Shown piece after piece: positions 1 through 62,295 of a DNA stretch of 64,000 nt. The notes beneath the pieces are model-generated. The model was not told the DNA's origin. It ran no database searches and worked only from the letters and a program-made list of their open reading frames with translations. Source of the DNA: an uncultured bacterium (GTDB lineage: Bacteria > Patescibacteriota > JACMRA01); contig OY969926.1 of NCBI GenBank assembly GCA_963704645.1, positions 1,056,001-1,120,000 on the forward strand, read 5' to 3'. Each line of letters starts with the position of its first letter. Within the stretch, counting starts at the first letter, position 1. A program made the position numbers and the translations under genes.

Positions 1-2501
1 ATGCAAGTTGAGTTTAAAGAACCTAAGATACTAGAATTTGCTCCGTTTAAAACTAAACTAATTTCACCATTTGTTGAATCTACTAATTTTAAATTTAGAC
101 TGTTTCCATCAATTCCCGATACTCCATTGTTTTGAGTATTTGGGTCTTGCAGCGAGAATTCCACAACTGGTTTTCGGTTATTAGAAAGTACTGTTTGCCC
201 ATTAATATCCATGTTTTGAGAGTTCAATGAAACTGAAGTAACACTTGGAATTTCCTCTTCTCTGGTAATTTTTAATTGCTTTTCTTGTTGGTTAGAAACG
301 GAATCTGTGGAACGGAATTTAAACAAATTTTCGCCTAAACTAAGGCCGTAATTTTTTTGGAAAAAGTAATCTTGGTTTACTACATTGTTGAACGGCAAAT
401 TTTGATAATTACAGTTACCCGAAGAAATCTGACATTCTTCTAAACTAACATCATCACCAGACATAATCTGCCCAGAAATTGTAAAATTATTTTGGTTAAC
501 AAAAGCATTCTGGCTTGGTAAACTTATATTAATATTGCCAGGTGTATTATCAATAGAAATTACCAAATCTTCATTTTTAGTAATGTTTCCAGCTTTATCT
601 AAGGCATTAATTATAACCGAGTAAGTAGCGTCGGGAAGGTTTTGCAGGTTTTCGTCTTGGCCTTTAAAAATATGGTTAAAAGACTTGTTATTTCCAACAT
701 TAAAAGTTGATTTATCTAAGCCAGCGTTAGAATCAAACAAGCCTAAAGTGGCCGCGACATCTCCCGTCTGTACGTTCTTTAACTGGTAGAAAACTCTATC
801 CAAATTGGCTTCATCAACATCAAATTTAACATTTGTTTCATCTTTTATTCCATCATTATTTATTGGAGAAATTCTTGTAGCTGGTATACTTTGTCCATCT
901 TGAATTAAAGTTTGCCCAGTAATTACAGGAATTGTGGCGTCCATTATAGTACTTTTTGCCGAAGAAAACTGCCCAATATTTGCTCTATCAGGCTGGGATG
1001 CATCAACAGTATCTTTATTTCTGACTACAAAATAATACTTCTTTCCATCCTCCAAATTTCCAAACCCAAAGAAAGCAGAATCTTGATAATTGCCAGTTGC
1101 TCCAGGATCTATTCCGTCAGCACCTGTAGAAGAACAGCGAACAAAATCGGAACTGGTTGGCGTAGCTGAAGTTCCAGCATTAAATGGAGTTAGTGCACTT
1201 GGATCTATTCCGTCCGTTCTGCAAAAATCGTATTTTACAGGATTACTTAAACCACCTACATCACCACCATTTGTAGAGTTTACCAAAAGCTGATCACCCA
1301 CAGAAAATTCTGGTAAAGTAACAATTTCAGCAGGAACAGGCGCCGTTGTGTCTACTTTTAAGTAGGTAGAATTAGAATAACTTATAGCGCCAATATTATC
1401 TACACTTTTAGCATAAACTTTGTAGTAACCATCTTTTATATCTAAAGTTTGGTTGAACTCTGCTGTGCTAGGCCAATAAATATTTTGAGAAATTCCCACT
1501 GGCAAAGAAGCACCAGGCGGAGTAGCGGGTTCTAAAATAATTTCAGAAAGATTGTAGTCTCCCGGAGCCTGATCACCGTCACCGAAATTTGTAAATCTAA
1601 TTTGAACTTTGCAGCCATTATTTTGAACACAGTCTTGTTTTAAATCATCGTTTGGATCTAGTAGATTGTTAGTACGCACAATTCCACCAACATATGGCAG
1701 ACCACCGTGAGCATCGTTTGAACTTAGCAAACTAGAGTCTAAAACTGGAACATTTGGCGGGCTATTTAAAATATAATTAATACTTAAAGAAGTAGCAAAA
1801 CCATTGCAAAAACTGCTTCCACCATCAGGACCCACAATTCTTACTGAGCAAAGCCAAGAACCATTATTTGTAGAACTAGACCTAACAGCAATGCCATAAT
1901 TAGTACCACCTGTATACCAACTTCTTACAGCATTTGTTGCATCCAAACTAAAAGTTCTCACCCCAGAGCCAACGCTGACCGTACCGCCGTCATTAGAAAA
2001 TGAAGGCCTATTAGCCCAAGTTGCAGTAGAAGGATTCCAGTTTGCATCTATTTTGGAAGCATAAAGAGATGGATTAGCCGCGTTAAGAATTGAATGGCTA
2101 TATTGTTTTAAATTAATACTAGCTCCTGTAACAATTGCTCCAGCTGGCAAATTTGGATTATTAAATTTTATTAAAGAAATTGCTTGACCCAAAGAACCAC
2201 TATAGAAAGCATAACCAGCTCCAACATGGTCTCTAAAATACTGTGAACCAGATTGATTACTAACTATCATTACATCGTCTGCAACCGAAACATTGGCAGT
2301 TTGAGCTTTTACTGCAATTGGTTGAACCGACAAACTAACCAAAGCTAAAAGACTAGCAGCAAAAACAGCAAGCGAAATATAAGTATAAAACTTTGTTTTG
2401 TTAACTGCACTTTTGATCAAATTTAAGGTGGAAAACATGCAGATGGATAAATTTCTAAATAAAGCTTCTGGTAATTTCTTAAACGATTTCATAAACTGCA
2501 T
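1..2501 (-). CDS. Large secreted/surface protein with DNRLRE-like and Ig-like (Big) repeats; runs off the window's left edge
   Basis: Not in the ORF track (no stop in window). Manual minus-strand translation from ATG at 2501 (or 2492): signal-like YISLAVFAASLLALVSLSVQPIAVKA, then SLIKFNNPNLPAGAIVTGASINL...WNPSTATWANRP and Ig-like motifs such as DKAGNITK...SIDNTP; frame spot-checked near 600 and near 1. Confidence 0.75.
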   Translation of the reverse strand, partial: MQFMKSFKKLPEALFRNLSICMFSTLNLIKSAVNKTKFYTYISLAVFAASLLALVSLSVQPIAVKAQTANVSVADDVMIVSNQSGSQYFRDHVGAGYAFYSGSLGQAISLIKFNNPNLPAGAIVTGASINLKQYSHSILNAANPSLYASKIDANWNPSTATWANRPSFSNDGGTVSVGSGVRTFSLDATNAVRSWYTGGTNYGIAVRSSSTNNGSWLCSVRIVGPDGGSSFCNGFATSLSINYILNSPPNVPVLDSSLLSSNDAHGGLPYVGGIVRTNNLLDPNDDLKQDCVQNNGCKVQIRFTNFGDGDQAPGDYNLSEIILEPATPPGASLPVGISQNIYWPSTAEFNQTLDIKDGYYKVYAKSVDNIGAISYSNSTYLKVDTTAPVPAEIVTLPEFSVGDQLLVNSTNGGDVGGLSNPVKYDFCRTDGIDPSALTPFNAGTSATPTSSDFVRCSSTGADGIDPGATGNYQDSAFFGFGNLEDGKKYYFVVRNKDTVDASQPDRANIGQFSSAKSTIMDATIPVITGQTLIQDGQSIPATRISPINNDGIKDETNVKFDVDEANLDRVFYQLKNVQTGDVAATLGLFDSNAGLDKSTFNVGNNKSFNHIFKGQDENLQNLPDATYSVIINALDKAGNITKNEDLVISIDNTPGNINISLPSQNAFVNQNNFTISGQIMSGDDVSLEECQISSGNCNYQNLPFNNVVNQDYFFQKNYGLSLGENLFKFRSTDSVSNQQEKQLKITREEEIPSVTSVSLNSQNMDINGQTVLSNNRKPVVEFSLQDPNTQNNGVSGIDGNSLNLKLVDSTNGEISLVLNGANSSILGSLNSTC

Positions 2502-55589: not shown

Positions 55590-57753
55590 ATGTCCAAATT
55601 TACAATAGCCCAAGCTTTAGCTTCTAATAAAGTACCAGAAAATACAGACGAACCAAGAAAAAAGAAATCTTCGGCCGATAGAAAAAGGCTTACTATCGGT
55701 TCAGCTAAAGTTACCAAAATTAAAGTTCCAAAAATTACTAAAATTTTTAAAGCTAAGGAAGTTGTTAAAACTGAAGAAGAACTAGCAGAAGAAGCAAAAA
55801 AAGTTCCGGTAAAACTAACCAGAGCAGCCTTAGCCAGAAAGGCCAACCCTAAAGAACTTGTTACCAGAAAAGGTATACTTGGATTGAACCTTGTTTCAAC
55901 TGCCGACACCAACCGTTTAGCAGCCTTGGAAGACGATTCTATTGAGCAACGTGGAGGCAGAAGATACCGTGTAACAGACGATGGTGTAAAAATTAAAATG
56001 AAGAAAGTTACTAAGCGTAGAATTAGTAAAAGTTCTGGTAAAGTTTTAAAGAAATTCATTGAAAACGATGCTTCTTTATACCCAGAATTTCAAAGACAGC
56101 CTTTAGATTGGCAGGCCAATGTTGTAGATACAATTAAGCAAGCTATTACCAGAGGTTTTGTTACCGAAGACGAGCTGTTATTCATGTTACCAAGGCCAGA
56201 AGAAAATATTAGACTTTTGGAAGACTTGTACGATTTAGCCGAAGACAGTGGGGCCGGAATTAAACTAGATAATACTTTAGATAGTTTGTGGGACACTCTA
56301 GAAAACGAGGATGAAATGAAACGCCGTGAAATGGAATTGGCTGAAAAGCTTTCAGGTTCCTTGGCAGGAGATGTTGGTGGTGACGAACTAAAAGATGATT
56401 CTGTTCAAAACTATATTAGAGATGTTTCAAGGTACCCTGTGCTAACTAAAGAGCAGGAAGTGGAATTAGCCAAAAGAATTGAGCAAGGCGACCAAAGCGC
56501 CAAACGTGAATTAACTTATGCCAACCTTAAATTAGTTGTTCATAATGCCAAAAAATACATGGGCAGAAACCTTGCCTTTCTAGATTTAATTCAAGAAGGA
56601 AACATGGGTTTGTTCCGTGCTGTAGAAAAATTTGATTGGAGACGTGGCTATAAGTTTTCTACTTACGCCAGTTACTGGATTGACCAAAGTATTAGAAGGG
56701 CACTTAGCCGACCAAAGCAGACCAGTGCGTTTGCCTGTTCACGTTGAAGAAAAACTTAACCGTTTCAAAAAAGAAAAGCGTGCTTTAATTGACGAACTGG
56801 GAAGAGAACCAACCGACGACGAGTTGGCAGAAAAGCTAGAACTAGATATGGACACCATCTTCTACTTCAGAAGAATTAGCCAAGACACAGTTTCTATAGA
56901 TACAATGATTGGTTTTTCTGATGACAGTGATACTTTAATGGTGGAAATGATTGAGGACGAAAACACAGCTCCGCCAATTGAAGTAGCCAGTAACAGAATT
57001 TTACGTGGTCATGTAATGAAAATTATTGATGACGTTTTAGAACCTCGTGAAAAGAAAGTAATTTTATTAAGATTTGGTTTAGATGGAACTAATGTTTCCC
57101 ACACTTTAGAAGAAATTGGAGAAGTTTTTCATGTTACCCGTGAACGTGTTCGCCAAATTGAAGAAGTAGCTTTAAACAAAATTAGGCAACACAATGAAAG
57201 TTTTAAATTAGTAGATTTCTTGGAAGGTGTTCACCCACAAACCTTTAATAATGAAGAGGTTAAAGCTGTGGATGTAGACAAAGAAATTCAAATTGGAAAG
57301 AAAATTCCTTTAGAAGTTTTAGTAGAGCAAATTGTACACCAAATTGTAAGCCAAGAGTCAGCTTTGTTCTTTATTAAAGGCGAAATGGGAAGCGGCAAAA
57401 CCAGAGCAGTACAGGACATTTGTAAGAAACTAGGAACAGAAGTAGAAGCAACGTCCCCTACTTTTGCCCTACTTCAAAAGTACCAATTGGCAACATCAAG
57501 CGCTGCCAAACAAAACGCCCAAATGGAAAATGTAGCCCATTTAGATTTACACAGGTTAAAAACTATAACCAAGGAAGACGAAGGTTGGATTGAAGAAGAA
57601 ATGGTAAACACCCAACAAGTTGTATTTGTTGAATGGCCAGAAAAACTTCTAAAAAACCAAGGTTTTATTCAATTCATAGGAAGAAAGTTCTACATAATTG
57701 AAGCCAAAATAGGCAAAAAAGGCGACCACTACTTCAGAATCAGAGAAGATTAG
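55590..57753 (+). CDS. rpoD: Primary sigma factor RpoD with one extra base near 56700-56706, C-terminally fused to a TsaE-like ATPase
   Basis: First ORF: [43 protein letters not shown]. Second ORF resumes [12 protein letters not shown]...[17 protein letters not shown], then [24 protein letters not shown]. Confidence 0.9.
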
Positions 57754-57946: not shown

Positions 57947-58865
57947 GGGGAAAGTACCCCTATTTAGGGGTCAAGCCGAAGGCTTGGGGGTAGTTTTAAA
58001 TTAATACAAGCATCTATTCCCCTCTTGAAGGGTGGCAACTTCCAAGGGTTCCCGAAAATTTTAATTTTTGGGATGAAGTTGTCGGGGTGGATTCTTAAAG
58101 AATGCAGCTTCAGGAGTAACTATAAAATTTACAAAACAAACCTCCCTCAAAATTAATAAAAATAATGAGGGAGAGGTGCTTTACTACCACTTGTTTAGCC
58201 AGTCTTTGACTATGTGAATGATAGCTCTTCCGCCATCTCTAACCAACGGATGATTTGCTGTGTTGAAAATTAAAGTTGCACCGCTGGTGTACTTTTGAAT
58301 TTTTTTAGGGGTCAATTTAGTCCTTTTGAACTTGTTAATTTTAGACATAATATAAATGTAAAATAGCCCTAACCTATAGAAAACAGAAAAATAAAACTTT
58401 ATTTTGTCTAGTATTACATATAACAAACTAGACATTAGCACTTTTTATTTAAGTAAAGTTTTTATAATTAAATGTTCACTTTATCTTGTATTAAAAGGCT
58501 TTGTGGGTATTTGGTAAGTAGTATTATTTGACAACAGGAAATTTTTGTTTTAGTATGAATTTAGTATCTTACCTCTAAATGAATGTGCTCTATTTCTTAG
58601 GGCTTGTTTTAGTATTTAAATAATTTATGATGTGGTCAAGCAAAATTTACGCTCTTATCTCTGAGTTTGTCTATTTAGTTTTACTTTATCTAAATTTATT
58701 AAATTCTCCACTAGATGTAGTGAACTAGAAATTTAACTACATCTAGTATTATATAAATATTTTAATAATAAATGTAGTAGTATATTTAGATTTTTGGATT
58801 GTATACTTAAACGCAAAACTACCCCCAAGCCTTCGGCTTGACCCCTAAATAGGGGTACTTTCCCC
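57947..58865. repeat. Perfect 51-bp inverted repeat pair enclosing 817 bp
   Basis: 57947-57997 is the exact reverse complement of 58815-58865. Confidence 0.92.
58184..58348 (-). CDS. Small basic protein (54 aa)
   Basis: MSKINKFKRTK...RAIIHIVKDWLNKW, followed by a hairpin and T-run at about 58130-58176. Confidence 0.5.
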   Translation of the reverse strand: MSKINKFKRTKLTPKKIQKYTSGATLIFNTANHPLVRDGGRAIIHIVKDWLNKW

Positions 58866-58922
58866 AACACAGGAGGATAAATCCTTCCCCTACAAAAAAT
58901 TCACTTGAATTACATCTCAACT

Positions 58923-59002
58923 TTGACACAAAAATAAAAAATGTTTAATATTATAGTACATTTTCCCATTGGGACGACCTCTTTTTAGAGGGTTATTTTT
59001 TT
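58923..59002 (+). ncRNA. Putative promoter plus small RNA, unit 1, convergent with toxin 1
   Basis: TTGACA-17-TAATAT, hairpins TCCC/GGGA and CCTCT/AGAGG, then a T-run. Confidence 0.55.
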
Positions 59003-59403
59003 ACTAGAAATTCTATAAATTTATTTTGAATATTCTGAAATTCGTTTACACCCACTTTAGAAGTTGAATATTGTAATCTTTTAGCATCGAAAGATCTGAT
59101 CTGGCTAAAAACTAAGTAGCTGCAAGACCCTCTAATTTCTAATTTATAAAACCAGCTTCCAACTTTTTCTTTAGAAGTTAAAGGAATGCCAATAAAACTT
59201 TCTTTATTAAGCTTTTTTAGTATAAACACAGGTCTTAAAAATAGCTTTTCCGAATAGTTTGAATTATTTTTTCCATTTATTTCTCGACCAATATTTTGAC
59301 CAAACACACAATACCAAATTTCTCTTTCTTCAAACAAAGGCCGAAGACTATTTTGCTGTATTTTAAATTTTAATTTAATCCAAGTTAGAAATTCTTCCCA
59401 CAT
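58993..59403 (-). CDS. PemK/MazF-family toxin-like endoribonuclease 1
   Basis: EREIW...GQNIGREINGK...RPVFILKK...GIPLTS...SQIRSFD.KRL. Confidence 0.88.
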   Translation of the reverse strand: MWEEFLTWIKLKFKIQQNSLRPLFEEREIWYCVFGQNIGREINGKNNSNYSEKLFLRPVFILKKLNKESFIGIPLTSKEKVGSWFYKLEIRGSCSYLVFSQIRSFDAKRLQYSTSKVGVNEFQNIQNKFIEFLVKK

Positions 59404-59530
59404 TAAATAATTCCTACAAAAGTTTTAAAGTTAGTCTAAAAAAGTTTGGTCAAAAGTTGGACTAATTGAGTTTAAAAAGATAAACGTGCAATTATTAAAA
59501 ATTAGTTTCCACAAGTCTTATGCTGAAACT

Positions 59531-59617
59531 TTGACACAAAAATAAAAACCCATTAACATTAGTAAATAAATTGGGATTACCCATGTACCTCTGGAAACAG
59601 AGGTTAATTTATTATTT
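59531..59617 (+). ncRNA. Putative promoter plus small RNA, unit 2, convergent with toxin 2
   Basis: TTGACA-17-TAACAT; TGGG-ATTA-CCCA; ACCTCTG-GAAA-CAGAGGT; ATAAATT/AATTTAT closing stem. Confidence 0.6.
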
Positions 59618-60004
59618 AAATATAACTTCAATGACATATTTTTTTATTTGATTTAATTCTGCTGTGGAAAGCTGAGCAATTTTCTTTCTAAACCGTTTAG
59701 AATCTAACGCTCTTATTTGCGAAACTAAAGCTGAATAGTATTGACCGCCGTAGCTAATTTTAAAATAGTATTTATTTTCTTTTAGCTTTGAGCTGATAGG
59801 AATAGCTAAGCAAAACCTACTATTAAATTTTTTTACTACGACAATTGGCCTTACAAAATTAAGACCTTTTCCATTTTCCTCATCTCCCAAGTTTTTACCC
59901 AAATTAACCCACCAAATTTCACCTTCATTATAAAAATAAGGTCTGAAGTTGTTTTCTTCAATTTTAAATTTTAATTTAATCCAAGTTAGAAATTCTTCCC
60001 ACAT
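59612..60004 (-). CDS. PemK/MazF-family toxin-like endoribonuclease 2
   Basis: GEIWW.NLG.NLG.EENGKG..F.RP.VVVKK...AIPISS...SQIRALD.KRF. Confidence 0.88.
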   Translation of the reverse strand: MWEEFLTWIKLKFKIEENNFRPYFYNEGEIWWVNLGKNLGDEENGKGLNFVRPIVVVKKFNSRFCLAIPISSKLKENKYYFKISYGGQYYSALVSQIRALDSKRFRKKIAQLSTAELNQIKKYVIEVIFK

Positions 60005-60095
60005 TAAATAATTCCTACAAAAGTTTTAAAGTTAGTCTAAAAAAGTTTGGTTCATAGTTGGACGAATTTGAGGGCAAAAGACTTACCTTACAACT

Positions 60096-60177
60096 TTGAC
60101 ACAAAAATAAAAACTATTTATTGTTCATAGAACAAATTTGCAACAGCCACGTACCCCTTATTTGGGGTTAATTTATT
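60096..60177 (+). ncRNA. Putative promoter plus small RNA, unit 3 (orphan)
   Basis: TTGACA-17-TATTGT; TTGC-AACA-GCCA; ACCCC-TTATTT-GGGGT; TAATTTATT. Confidence 0.55.
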
Positions 60178-60193
60178 GGCTTAAAATTTAACT

Positions 60194-60277
60194 TTGACGC
60201 ACTAGTAAAAATTATTCAGTATTGAACAAATTGGGATTACCCACAGCACCTCTAATAATAGAGGTATAATTTTGTTC
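60194..60277 (+). ncRNA. Putative promoter plus small RNA, unit 4 (orphan)
   Basis: TTGACG-17-CAGTAT; TGGG-ATTA-CCCA; ACCTCTA-ATAA-TAGAGGT; GAACAAATT/AATTTTGTTC closing stem. Confidence 0.55.
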
Positions 60278-60303
60278 TAATTTAGAACTAGCTAATCTCC
60301 CTT

Positions 60304-62295
60304 TTACTTATCATCCCAAATGTAAACACCATTAAATTTAGTCATTTCTATGGCTGACATATTTTTAATTCTTTCTAATAAAAGTTTACTTACACTATCA
60401 TCAGGTAGATTTGCAAAGATTTTGGAGGCTTCTGTGTATTTACCTTCTGAATAAAGTTTGTATCCCAATGAAAACTGTTGGACCAAATCTGTGTTGGACT
60501 GAGTTGGTTGCAAGAGTTCGTATATTGCAACACCTGCTTGTTTACCTTTAACTTGGACCAAATCTATCTGACGGTACAACCCGCCTTCAAAGCTTCCAAA
60601 AAAATGAGAATCTTGGGATAAATCTAAACCAGCAATTTCCAAAACTGCTTTAGAAACCAAAATTTCTATTCCGTACTTTTTAGTTAAACCTTCAAGCCTG
60701 GAAGCCAGGTTTACATTGTCACCCAAAACTGTGTATTCAAAACGCTTCTTTCCACCAATATTTCCTACAATTACATTGCCTGAATTTAGTCCAATGCCAA
60801 TTTTTAAGTCTTTAAATTCAGGGTGTTGTGCATTAAATTGCTGTAAAGATGTTTGCATTAAAAGAGTAGTTTGCATTGCTAACAGTGCATGTTTTGGGTT
60901 ATCAAGTGGAGCATTCCACAAAGCCATTATGCAATCACCTATGTATTTATCGATTGTTCCTTGCTGATTCAAAATTACTTCCCCTGCACTATCCAGATAC
61001 AAATTTGTGAGATGAACTAACTCTTCTGGAGACATAGTTTCTGCTAGAGATGTAAAACCACGAATATCGCTAAACAAAATAGTAACTGTTTTTTTGCTGC
61101 CACCAAGCTTAAGCTGGTCGGGATTTTTTAATACTTCTGCTAACAATGCCGGGCTTAGATATTGGCTAAAGGTTTCTGAAATGAATTTATTTTGTTTCCC
61201 TTTAGTGGCACTTTCAAAAGCCAAAAAACCCCCGAAACCTCCTATTAAACCGAAGCTGGAAGATAAAAATAGCCAAATATACCCCAATCCAAACAATACA
61301 GCTCCAAAAATGTTTATTACAATTAGGCATAAAAACTGGTTTATCAAAACGTTTTGCATTTTAGGCCATTTAAACCATAAACCAATTAGAACAGAATAGA
61401 TTAATGTGAAAATTAAATAATTCAACCATGGGTTAATTTGCTGCCTGTTTATATTTTCCAGTAAAGAGTTTACAACGTTGGCATGAATTTCCACCCCCGC
61501 AATTTGTTGGCCAAAAACACTTGTAAAATTATCATTCAAATTATTTTTCAAATCTTTGCTGGTTGAACCAATTAAAACAATTTTTCCTTCCAAATTAGCT
61601 TTATCTATGGAATTATTATACAAGTCGGAAAAGCTGTAGGTTTCAAATTGATTTTTTGCATATTCAAAATTATAATTTTGTTGAAAGCTTTGCTGCCTAA
61701 CTTTCACTTGAGCTTGGCTGCAATTGGAAGGGGTTTTATCTAAAACTGAGTTTTTAAATAAGGCAAAAGCAAAACTTGAATAACATTCACCCGAAACCTG
61801 CTTTGTTAAAGTTGCAGTTCTAATTTTACCATCTGTATCAGGGCTAAAATCAATTAAAGCGCTGGTTATATTTGATTTATTTTGAGGAACTAAAGGGCTT
61901 TCTAAAATTTTGTTATTATCGCTTTTAGCACCAAAAACAATTGGCATTTCAGAGTTATTTAAATACGCACTAAGCTGATCATCGCCCTGCCTGCTTTCTA
62001 AAAACAAAATGTCCAATCCTACAGCTCTGGGCTTAGCTTCTTCTAAGTTAGAAAGTGCTTTTGCAAAAATATCTCTGTTCCAAGGCCAAGCTCCAATTTG
62101 CTGTAAACTTTTATCGTCTATACCTATAATTACCACGTCTTTTCTAGCAGATATTACACCCTGCAACTGGTCAGTAATTGTTTGATTAGCTGAAGCCAAA
62201 GGAGGGGTTAAAGCCAATAACCAACCCAAAATTATTCCTAAGGGAATGTATAAATAATAGATAAAATTAGAATTAAGTTTAATAGCTTTGAACAT
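60304..62295 (-). CDS. CHASE2-domain adenylate cyclase
   Basis: IIGIDDKSL..IGAWPW.R, GVEIHA; three TM helices; FSDIRGFT, DKYIGDCIMA, YTVLGDNVNLASRLE. Confidence 0.95.
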   Translation of the reverse strand: MFKAIKLNSNFIYYLYIPLGIILGWLLALTPPLASANQTITDQLQGVISARKDVVIIGIDDKSLQQIGAWPWNRDIFAKALSNLEEAKPRAVGLDILFLESRQGDDQLSAYLNNSEMPIVFGAKSDNNKILESPLVPQNKSNITSALIDFSPDTDGKIRTATLTKQVSGECYSSFAFALFKNSVLDKTPSNCSQAQVKVRQQSFQQNYNFEYAKNQFETYSFSDLYNNSIDKANLEGKIVLIGSTSKDLKNNLNDNFTSVFGQQIAGVEIHANVVNSLLENINRQQINPWLNYLIFTLIYSVLIGLWFKWPKMQNVLINQFLCLIVINIFGAVLFGLGYIWLFLSSSFGLIGGFGGFLAFESATKGKQNKFISETFSQYLSPALLAEVLKNPDQLKLGGSKKTVTILFSDIRGFTSLAETMSPEELVHLTNLYLDSAGEVILNQQGTIDKYIGDCIMALWNAPLDNPKHALLAMQTTLLMQTSLQQFNAQHPEFKDLKIGIGLNSGNVIVGNIGGKKRFEYTVLGDNVNLASRLEGLTKKYGIEILVSKAVLEIAGLDLSQDSHFFGSFEGGLYRQIDLVQVKGKQAGVAIYELLQPTQSNTDLVQQFSLGYKLYSEGKYTEASKIFANLPDDSVSKLLLERIKNMSAIEMTKFNGVYIWDDK

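Follow-up and report, generated by a model that had tools for sequence, protein, structure and literature searches.

A conserved two-hairpin RNA convergent with MazF-like toxin genes as a probable RNA antitoxin in Patescibacteria and beyond

MazF and PemK are textbook type II toxins, which are paired with protein antidotes. The stretch of DNA analysed here (the window) comprises 64,000 nucleotides (nt) from an uncultured bacterium of the Patescibacteriota (lineage JACMRA01; GenBank assembly GCA_963704645.1, contig OY969926.1, positions 1,056,001 to 1,120,000 of the forward strand), whose source contig measures 1,272,640 bp at 33% G+C. It contains two PemK/MazF-like toxin genes on the minus strand and, on the plus strand from 58919 to 60280, four units that share a design, each consisting of a promoter, a small hairpin, a larger hairpin and a U-rich tail. 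A previous sequence-only reading had proposed that these units encode RNAs that control the toxins. By comparative sequence criteria, the RNA gene is conserved and structured, and both its position and its phyletic distribution tie it to a MazF-fold subfamily without a protein antitoxin.

Toxin genes and RNA units at the locus

Toxin 1 (136 amino acids; 58993..59403, minus strand) and toxin 2 (130 amino acids; 59612..60004, minus strand) match the PemK/MazF family PF02452 with 26.4 bits (E 8e-6) and 57.5 bits (E 1.8e-15), respectively, against a cut-off of 23.1 bits, and the two proteins are 40% identical. PemK is their only Pfam match, with no assignment to ToxN/AbiQ, CptN or TenpN; NCBIfam gives a weak MazF match only, and no PADLOC defence model matches the toxins. 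A profile of the family matches the solved MazF/EndoA proteins of Bacillus subtilis (4MDX, 1NE8), Staphylococcus aureus and Escherichia coli with E-values down to 2e-6. Specifically, at alignment level, an invariant R52-P53 corresponds to the Arg-Pro motif of B. subtilis MazF and an SS(K) stretch to its Thr region, and we take the aligned Arg and Ser/Thr of the subfamily to be the MazF catalytic residues. The AlphaFold model of toxin 2 (81 sequences) reaches a predicted local distance difference test score (pLDDT) of 95.7, and the top Foldseek matches are MazF of S. aureus, B. subtilis (4MDX), Mycobacterium tuberculosis and E. coli, with target-normalised template modelling scores of 0.68-0.79 among the top ones. 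By model and profile, both minus-strand open reading frames (ORFs) are MazF/PemK-fold (SH3-like barrel) proteins with predicted ribonuclease (RNase) activity. The initial call of MazF-like toxins is thus borne out by PF02452, the family profile, the structure model and Foldseek alike. With MazEF and PemIK the subfamily shares the toxin fold, the Arg-Pro and Ser/Thr motifs and the C-terminal helix; it differs in an extra N-terminal helix (residues 2-17, with an invariant W8 and a near-invariant K12) that canonical MazF lacks, in a GKG insertion ahead of the Arg, and in having no MazE/PemI gene.

All four RNA units lie on the plus strand, with a 17-nt spacer between the promoter boxes. Unit 1, the partner of toxin 1 (58958..59002), has a predicted 5' end of ACAUUU and hairpins at 58964-58974 and 58978-58991; its promoter (58923..58951) combines a TTGACA -35 box (58923-58928) with a TAATAT -10 box (58946-58951) and matches the consensus at 10/12 positions. 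Unit 2, the partner of toxin 2 (59566..59617), starts with AUAAAU (59566-59571), followed by hairpins at 59572-59583 and 59587-59604, the latter with a GAAA loop, behind a promoter at 59531..59559 (TTGACA, TAACAT). Units 3 and 4 are divergent from toxin 2, on its upstream side, and neither overlaps a toxin. With its promoter (TTGACA, TATTGT), unit 3 occupies 60096..60175 and has a weakened hairpin 1; unit 4 occupies 60194..60272 (TTGACG, CAGTAT), with a -10 box that lies 3 nt nearer the 5' motif than usual. In a consensus scan, three of the four promoters score 10/12. The small hairpins have 3-4 bp and the larger ones 5-7 bp, and the units are flanked by A-rich sequence on the 5' side and U-rich sequence on the 3' side. 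Promoters and stems were all found where the sequence-only reading had placed them. That units 1 and 2 end at the toxin stop codons, as it also claimed, can be seen on the sequence: the U-tail of unit 1 overlaps the stop codon and last Lys codons of toxin 1, the tail of unit 2 crosses the toxin 2 stop codon (59612-59614), and both tails are the complement of the stop and final codons, the unit ends being predicted from sequence.

The notable feature of these units is their clustering and common design, rather than the count of the 9-mer AACTTTGAC, which starts at 58919, 59527, 60092 and 60190 (plus strand) in the cluster. This 9-mer is not rare, with 37 sites at up to one mismatch against 31.6 expected and six exact sites in the window; as an extension of the -35 box it had been proposed as a design element, a claim that did not hold, because the extension is confined to recent copies in the source genome. 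The region as a whole shows no excess of promoter-like sites (12 against 10.0 expected). Terminator-like sites between 58300 and 60700 number six against 1.1 expected from shuffles, and four of the six are the large hairpins of the units on the plus strand. Folding of single sequences does not separate the strands (z -1.6 to -3.3 on the plus strand, -1.8 to -3.5 on the minus strand).

No family of Rfam 15 matches the units, and Aragorn reports one transfer RNA gene only, a tRNA-Ser distant from them. An identity as integron attC sites was considered and dropped, as the units combine two short independent hairpins with a promoter and do not form a single long imperfect hairpin. At 58528-58610 (plus strand), a TTGACA-17-TAGTAT promoter is followed by a terminator-like hairpin (58587-58603) with neither the two-hairpin design nor an adjoining toxin; this element may be an unrelated small RNA.

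Recurrence in the source genome and across phyla

The unit design is more than a chance pattern, because it is found beside all five further toxin paralogs of the source genome and beside homologues in other phyla. The further paralogs, located by tblastn, comprise three intact genes (p3, p4, p5), a copy interrupted by stops and a frameshift (p6) and a 3' fragment (p7). All seven paralogs thus have a unit on the opposite strand that ends at the toxin stop codon; at the five further ones, it is composed of a TTGACA-17-TAnnnT promoter and two hairpins that end at the toxin 3' end. The stems at these five vary in sequence and keep their pairing, both in the small hairpin (CGAC/GTCG, CACC/GGTG, GGCC/GGTC, TGCC/GGTA) and in the large one (CCTCCCA/TGGGAGG, CTCCTC/GAGGAG, CCCCC/GGGGG, CCTCTC/GAGAGG). 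Every intact toxin of the genome (5/5) has a unit, and four units lack an intact toxin: u3 and u4 have none, u5 stands beside the 3' fragment and u9 beside the frameshifted copy. At the level of gene content, the RNA thus outlasts the toxin in this genome and never the reverse, which is the signature expected of an antitoxin.

A search of 1.84 billion cluster representatives with the toxin profile gave 3,304 matches at E<=1e-3, of which 1,902 reach E<=1e-10 and 343 reach E<=1e-30. In contigs drawn from one genome per species, 559 stretches encode a toxin relative, and the locus analyses cover the best 80 of these 559. According to their record titles, 39 of the 80 belong to Patescibacteria (Candidate Phyla Radiation), 16 to Alphaproteobacteria, Rickettsiales or Proteobacteria, six to Gammaproteobacteria, five to DPANN archaea and one each to Bdellovibrionales and Bacteroidetes; 12 are unlabelled. 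In most loci, the same unit design can be recognized by eye in the reverse complement of the 170 nt past the stop codon.

A covariance model (R1) was seeded with four consistently aligned sequences and, after 43 matches, rebuilt as R2. Run over both strands of 459,497 nt, R2 gives 61 matches at E<=1, every one of them antisense to the toxin. Of the 80 foreign loci, 66 have a match where the RNA is expected, 46 of them with default filters, 17 with filters off (E<=1) and three at E 2.1-2.3. The check that the sequence-only reading had suggested, a covariance model over the regions downstream of orphan PemK homologues, did return covarying stems. The remaining 14 loci comprise four with a long hairpin 1 (L022, L023, L025, L048), four archaeal variants, two other variants seen by eye (L061, L063), two with the RNA upstream (L031, L072) and two (L026, L050) at which neither R2 nor inspection by eye found a unit. 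R2 fails on archaeal and long-hairpin-1 variants and on the RNAs of Campylobacter and Helicobacter, which were assessed by eye. In the window, R2 scores unit 2 at 47.8 bits (E 5.5e-10), unit 4 at 45.5 bits (E 2.4e-9 at 60226-60272) and unit 3 at 24.4 bits (E 0.0019 at 60132-60175); unit 1, with its variant 5' motif and 3-nt loop, escapes the model. Elsewhere in the source genome, u9 and u7 are missed with default filters and score only 21.5 and 10.2 bits, respectively, with filters off. Two weak matches away from the toxin paralogs (G000:C1:517443-517474 and 980328-980380, both minus strand; E 0.23 and 0.97) may be chance hits or decayed units.

Viral contigs contribute three toxin relatives with an RNA. 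One of these, L096, has three tandem RNA copies downstream of a single toxin relative (930-1130, minus strand), with a 5' motif of UAUAUU/UAUUU and not ACAAAU; tandem copies each have promoter-like boxes. At L076 (1949-3452), three entire toxin-RNA modules stand in tandem, the third toxin being weakly similar.

The loci also bear on the claim that the toxins have no neighbouring protein antitoxin, which held throughout. No antitoxin-sized ORF is common to the upstream regions of the two window toxins, and no MazE-like partner was found at the 75 loci with enough upstream DNA, where the upstream same-strand ORFs are unrelated and of all sizes. None of ten antitoxin-sized upstream ORFs matches an antitoxin family, one of them being BolA. 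Upstream genes vary between loci, and no neighbour other than the RNA is conserved.

Structure, strand and start of the RNA

Covariation was assessed on 61 sequences (57 distinct rows). Standard pairs occupy 94.6% of cells against 61.5% in column shuffles, changes on both sides of a pair occur in 227 cells against 59 after shuffling, and compensatory change is seen at 14 of 14 pairs; when the 3' partner is slid by 1-3 columns, pairing falls to 41-54%. The earlier observation that the stems change yet keep pairing therefore extends to every pair of the model. A three-way junction, which had also been suggested, fared differently: its closing helix appears in two of 61 folds and is local to the AT-rich units of the source genome.

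Several features assign the RNA to the strand antisense to the toxin. On this strand, G-U/U-G pairs outnumber A-C/C-A combinations 30 to 6. Among 30 four-nt loops of hairpin 2, 25 are GNRA and one is UNCG on the antisense strand, against none on the other, and hairpin 1 shows nine GNRA/UNCG loops against none. A sigma-70 match of at least 9/12 whose -10 box precedes the start of the model by 3-9 nt is present in 63 of 81 units, compared with 1.3% of random positions, as would be expected of the separate opposite-strand unit with its own promoter that the sequence-only reading had postulated. The gap between the -10 box and the model is 6 nt in 43 of 68 cases, and 37 promoters have a perfect TTGACA -35 box.

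The 6-nt gap puts the predicted first transcribed base on the A of ACAAAU, a 5' motif with column counts of A50, C47, A58, A53, A51 and U54 of about 58. In all five archaeal loci, a TATA-like hexamer stands 27 nt (once 29) before the same motif. The promoters thereby place the predicted transcript start at or next to the A of the conserved ACAAAU in bacteria and archaea alike. In 45 of 61 minimum-energy folds, no base of this hexamer is paired. Hairpin 1 is, for much of its length, semi-conserved in sequence from Patescibacteria to archaea.

Layout and co-occurrence with the toxin

Over 48 cases, the distance between the 3' base of hairpin 2 and the final base of the toxin stop codon is 2-13 nt in 33 and 17-26 nt in five; in eight the hairpin reaches 16-32 nt into the ORF, and two are second tandem copies. 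RNA copies that overlap no toxin also occur, namely u3 and u4 of the window, upstream-divergent copies at L066, L080 and L047, second copies at L033 and L030, and the tandem copies of L096. At L031 and L072, the sole RNA lies 42 and 84 nt, respectively, upstream of the toxin ATG in divergent orientation, and at L072 the toxin is followed by its own canonical terminator.

Among 41 genomes (the source genome and 40 relatives), the RNA occurs in 10, the toxin in 16 and both in nine; one genome has the RNA without the toxin, on a weak match. Neither was found in 17 genomes outside the family, which represent 17 other families (one of the same order, 16 of the same phylum) at 87-100% completeness. 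Thirteen of 20 RNA matches in the relatives directly abut a toxin on the opposite strand in convergent orientation, and 10 of 20 toxins of relatives initially without an RNA gain a match of E<=0.005 at the expected place and strand when 341 nt around their 3' end are searched with filters off. The nine genomes with both genes and the 61 antisense matches support a linkage of RNA and toxin across phyla and domains.

A precedent in Campylobacter

The cjrA/cjpT pair of the Campylobacter jejuni plasmid pVir was reportedly described by Shen et al. (2016, Mol Microbiol 101:909). A tblastn search of plasmids returned 16 toxin relatives, all from Campylobacterota, one of them on pVir of C. jejuni 81-176. 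Passages of two publications describe CjrA of pVir as the antisense small RNA (sRNA) antitoxin of a type I system (PMC10470494, PMC7826846). The single annotated toxin-antitoxin (TA) gene of pVir is a PemK/MazF-family ORF with no antitoxin beside it, from which we infer that this ORF is CjpT. It is a full-length member of the subfamily, N-terminal helix included (hhalign probability 99.85%, E 7e-31), and antisense to its 3' flank there are a -10 box and GC-rich hairpins that end 6 nt from the stop codon. Inspected by eye, the pVir RNA resembles the two-hairpin family in design, but it has three hairpins, no ACAAAU and no R2 match, whereas a Nitratiruptor plasmid carries the canonical form, AUAAAU and two hairpins behind TGnTATAAT. 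The cjrA/cjpT pair is thus a likely experimental precedent.

The statement that the arrangement is undescribed is accordingly not supported, as cjrA/cjpT probably precedes it, going by the two passages on CjrA. A literature search did not find the two-hairpin family, its covariation or its spread through Patescibacteria, Rickettsiales and DPANN described, nor any paper that pairs a MazF-family toxin of these lineages with a conserved, structured RNA.

Function and mode of action

By comparative criteria the feature is real, non-random and functional. The units are most likely genes for RNA antitoxins of ~45-60 nt, each forming with its toxin a two-gene module in which an RNA takes the place of MazE and presumably neutralizes the toxin. 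We put the probability that the RNA is the antitoxin of the MazF-type toxin, by whichever mode, at roughly 85%. That direct binding of RNA to protein is the main mode we would give even odds.

In the mechanism proposed, the strong promoter of the RNA gene would set the 5' end on the single-stranded ACAAAU, which the two hairpins follow. A MazF dimer would then bind the 5' ACA tail, ACA being the triplet that MazF classically recognizes, in a type III-like manner as a pseudo-substrate that is cleaved slowly or not at all, and the hairpins together with the subfamily-specific N-terminal helix would add affinity for the toxin. At convergent loci the toxin messenger RNA (mRNA) would read through the RNA gene, and a duplex at its 3' end would be a likely second layer of repression, because the toxin mRNA must cross the RNA gene where the two converge. 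Direct binding is preferred because of the conserved single-stranded motif, the non-overlapping copies and the two upstream-divergent loci; in particular, ACAAAU is conserved even though cis-antisense pairing needs no fixed sequence. At L031, the predicted pairing between RNA and toxin mRNA (-31.7 kcal/mol) does not exceed that of shuffles (-33.5 +/- 3.6), compared with -98 kcal/mol for a convergent control. A module that works behind bacterial or archaeal promoters would also be easier to envisage if no host factor were needed.

Going one step further, it is conceivable, with somewhat less than even confidence, that the module represents a novel class, in which an RNA antitoxin inhibits true MazF RNases by direct binding, pppACAAAU occupying the dimer groove as a mimic of product or pseudo-substrate and a clamp formed by the two hairpins and the subfamily-specific N-terminal helix holding it in place. 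Such a module would be self-sufficient, requiring no host RNase or chaperone, which would explain its movement from Patescibacteria, Rickettsiales and Campylobacterota to DPANN with a change of promoter only, and it would constitute a missing link between type II MazEF and type III ToxIN.

A number of points weigh against an antitoxin that acts by direct binding, or against parts of the evidence for it. The covariation alignment was fitted to the model, and related sequences inflate the shuffle tests, caveats of which the G-U, loop and promoter evidence is independent. The E-values of the home-made R2 are rough; with filters off, its off-target matches begin at E ~0.03, so that weak matches count by position and strand alone. 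The alphaproteobacterial RNAs have no clear U-tail and may be longer antisense RNAs that extend into the toxin ORF. The conservation of ACAAAU might instead reflect a constraint on the toxin strand, where the motif reads AUUUGU and follows a hairpin. By far the most loci keep the convergent arrangement with abutting 3' ends, which argues that the overlap itself matters and fits an antisense mode. The upstream-divergent cases amount to two of 80 and share a lineage label, and could be remnants protected in trans by other copies; at L072, moreover, the complementarity of the RNA to the toxin terminator region beats 199 of 200 shuffles in a stem-to-stem match.

These points lead to the strongest competing explanation, a type I-like system in which the RNA acts purely in cis by antisense pairing with the toxin mRNA at its 3' end, degradation or a block of expression follows from the duplex, the hairpins serve stability and termination, and the toxin protein is never bound; we consider it rather unlikely, though clearly ahead of the other rivals. 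B. subtilis txpA/RatA and bsrG/SR4 act via such 3' overlaps. Overlap or abutment is the rule here too (2-13 nt in 33/48, ORF overlap in eight), and the complement of hairpin 2 has no T-run on the toxin strand, and therefore the toxin mRNA should extend across the RNA gene, where a full duplex of ~50 bp would be very stable (-98 kcal/mol in the convergent control). CjrA, in the passages mentioned, is likewise classified as an antisense type I antitoxin. Yet cis-antisense pairing requires neither a single-stranded 5' motif nor a semi-conserved hairpin 1, and it leaves unexplained the copies that overlap no toxin and the two loci at which the only RNA is upstream and divergent. The module also spans bacteria and archaea with domain-specific promoters, which would be easier without dependence on a host RNase or chaperone; one article, in the part that bears on this, proposes that antisense type I systems are less mobile than direct-binding ones (PMC5367252). 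Nor is there conserved complementarity to the ribosome-binding region of the toxin: trans pairing of the 5' ACAAA with this region was considered and rejected, as TTTGT occurs within 90 nt upstream in only 21 of 75 loci.

It is improbable, by contrast, that the RNA is tied to the toxin without being its antitoxin, for instance because it is a favoured substrate, tunes toxin activity as a cofactor or serves as a decoy sensor that frees the toxin upon phage infection or stress, with the neutralizer encoded elsewhere. Linkage and structure are established and an antitoxin function is predicted, no PADLOC defence model matches the toxins, and there is a precedent for an unlinked partner in the solitary MazF-mx of Myxococcus xanthus, which according to a passage of one report is neutralized by MrpC (PMC4803016). 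However, intact toxins of the source genome always come with the RNA, the RNA is kept beside decayed toxins, no other neighbour is conserved, and CjrA, as far as it is described in the passages cited above, provides a precedent for an antitoxin role.

That the hairpins are merely the 3' untranslated region or terminator of the toxin gene, perhaps a bidirectional one, and that the promoter boxes arose by chance in AT-rich DNA, is very improbable: single hairpins do fold equally well on either strand, promoter-like sites are not enriched and the A-rich and U-rich flanks would suit a terminator, but promoters are correctly placed in 63/81 units against 1.3% with a fixed 6-nt gap, archaeal TATA boxes keep a fixed distance in 5/5 loci, GNRA/UNCG loops occur on the antisense strand only, G-U/U-G exceed A-C/C-A pairs 30 to 6, and some units have no upstream toxin gene or are upstream-divergent copies.

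Relation to known systems

The predicted antitoxin RNA and its toxin resemble the type III systems ToxIN, CptIN and TenpIN in combining an endoribonuclease toxin with a small structured RNA and no protein antitoxin, the inhibition being predicted in the present case, and in the presence of extra or tandem RNA copies (L096, L033, u3 and u4). ToxN binds ToxI in a pseudo-substrate-like relationship, and the binding mode proposed here resembles it, as judged from parts of two reports (PMC8860590, PMC3401426). The differences are that sequence and fold identify the present toxin as a true MazF and not a ToxN/AbiQ, that the RNA is composed of two simple hairpins, and that it is a single unit with its own promoter, usually convergent and downstream, whereas type III RNAs form an upstream co-transcribed repeat array that is cut by the toxin.

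With type I 3'-overlap systems such as txpA/RatA and bsrG/SR4, the module shares a cis-encoded RNA on the opposite strand and convergent 3' ends. If the toxin mRNA reads through as predicted, the RNA would be able to pair fully with its 3' part in most loci; L031 lacks such complementarity. Type I toxins are usually small hydrophobic membrane proteins, with SymE and RalR as exceptions, while the toxin here has a 130-amino-acid soluble RNase fold; SymE, according to part of one report, is a type I toxin that is no membrane peptide (PMC1891008). The RNA further differs from type I antitoxins in its primary motif and structure, which are conserved over phyla and domains, and in its non-overlapping and divergent copies.

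The Rfam pemK motif (RF02913) is also named for neighbouring pemK genes, but its model fails on the units. No unit reaches its gathering score of 34.8 bits: the model finds nothing at E<=10 in the window region and nothing at E<=1 in 12 diverse loci, and its three weak matches in the source genome all lie away from the units. The main text of Weinberg et al. 2017 makes no mention of the pemK motif (PMC5737381).

Implications

The kind of system is known, in the form of RNA antitoxins, among which cjrA/cjpT probably belongs; new are the conserved RNA architecture and its breadth over two domains, and possibly the mode of action. A large MazF subfamily, with 559 confirmed genomic loci, appears to use a small structured RNA instead of a protein. 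If this is true, many "orphan" PemK genes of Patescibacteria, Rickettsiales and DPANN archaea, whose genomes are small, would be complete two-part modules, and the pair would be a rare toxin-RNA combination common to bacteria and archaea that links the MazF and ToxN worlds. A conserved RNA family absent from Rfam would thereby be added. Natural variants, namely the upstream-divergent and orphan copies, already part binding from antisense action, and an RNase of ~130 amino acids together with an RNA inhibitor of ~50 nt offers a compact candidate switch.

Toxin transcription and neighbouring features

At the 5' side, the first ~48 nt of the toxin 1 ORF and ~50 nt of leader (59355..59450, minus strand) are 100% identical to the corresponding part of toxin 2 (~59956-60051), and the remainder of the two genes is 50-65% identical. 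This suggests either that gene conversion took place or that the 5' element is under constraint; the leader of the pseudogene p6 (L004) is similar to that of the window toxins. Many Patescibacteria toxin genes (L008, L053, L064, L073, L080, L083 and others) have an extended -10 box TGnTAnnnT 6-7 nt before the ATG and no Shine-Dalgarno sequence, so that many of these mRNAs look leaderless from the sequence. At the archaeal loci, a TATA-like box lies ~25-35 nt ahead of the toxin ATG.

At the 3' side, a terminator-like hairpin past unit 1 (58825..58841, minus strand) may mark where the toxin 1 mRNA ends, in which case this mRNA would cover the entire complement of unit 1. The hairpin belongs to a dispersed repeat in the form of a GC-rich double hairpin (CCAAGCCTTCGGCTTG, ACCCCTAAATAGGGGT) that resembles repetitive extragenic palindromes (REP) and lies at 58815-58865 (both strands) and 57947-57997; blastn finds more than 20 partial or full copies in the genome, and the terminator-like end reads 58841-58825 on the minus strand.

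Further upstream on the plus strand (55590-57753), the reading frame of an RpoD-like sigma factor is interrupted, so that its parts lie in two overlapping, differently framed ORFs (55590-56747 and 56632-57753). The break near 56700 falls within conserved region 2 and could be a frameshift, an assembly error or programmed, and the second ORF runs on into a P-loop-like domain (GxxGxGKT). On the other side of the cluster, adjoining unit 4, a minus-strand gene (60304-62295) encodes a fusion of a CHASE2 sensor and an adenylate/guanylate cyclase domain (PF05226, PF00211).

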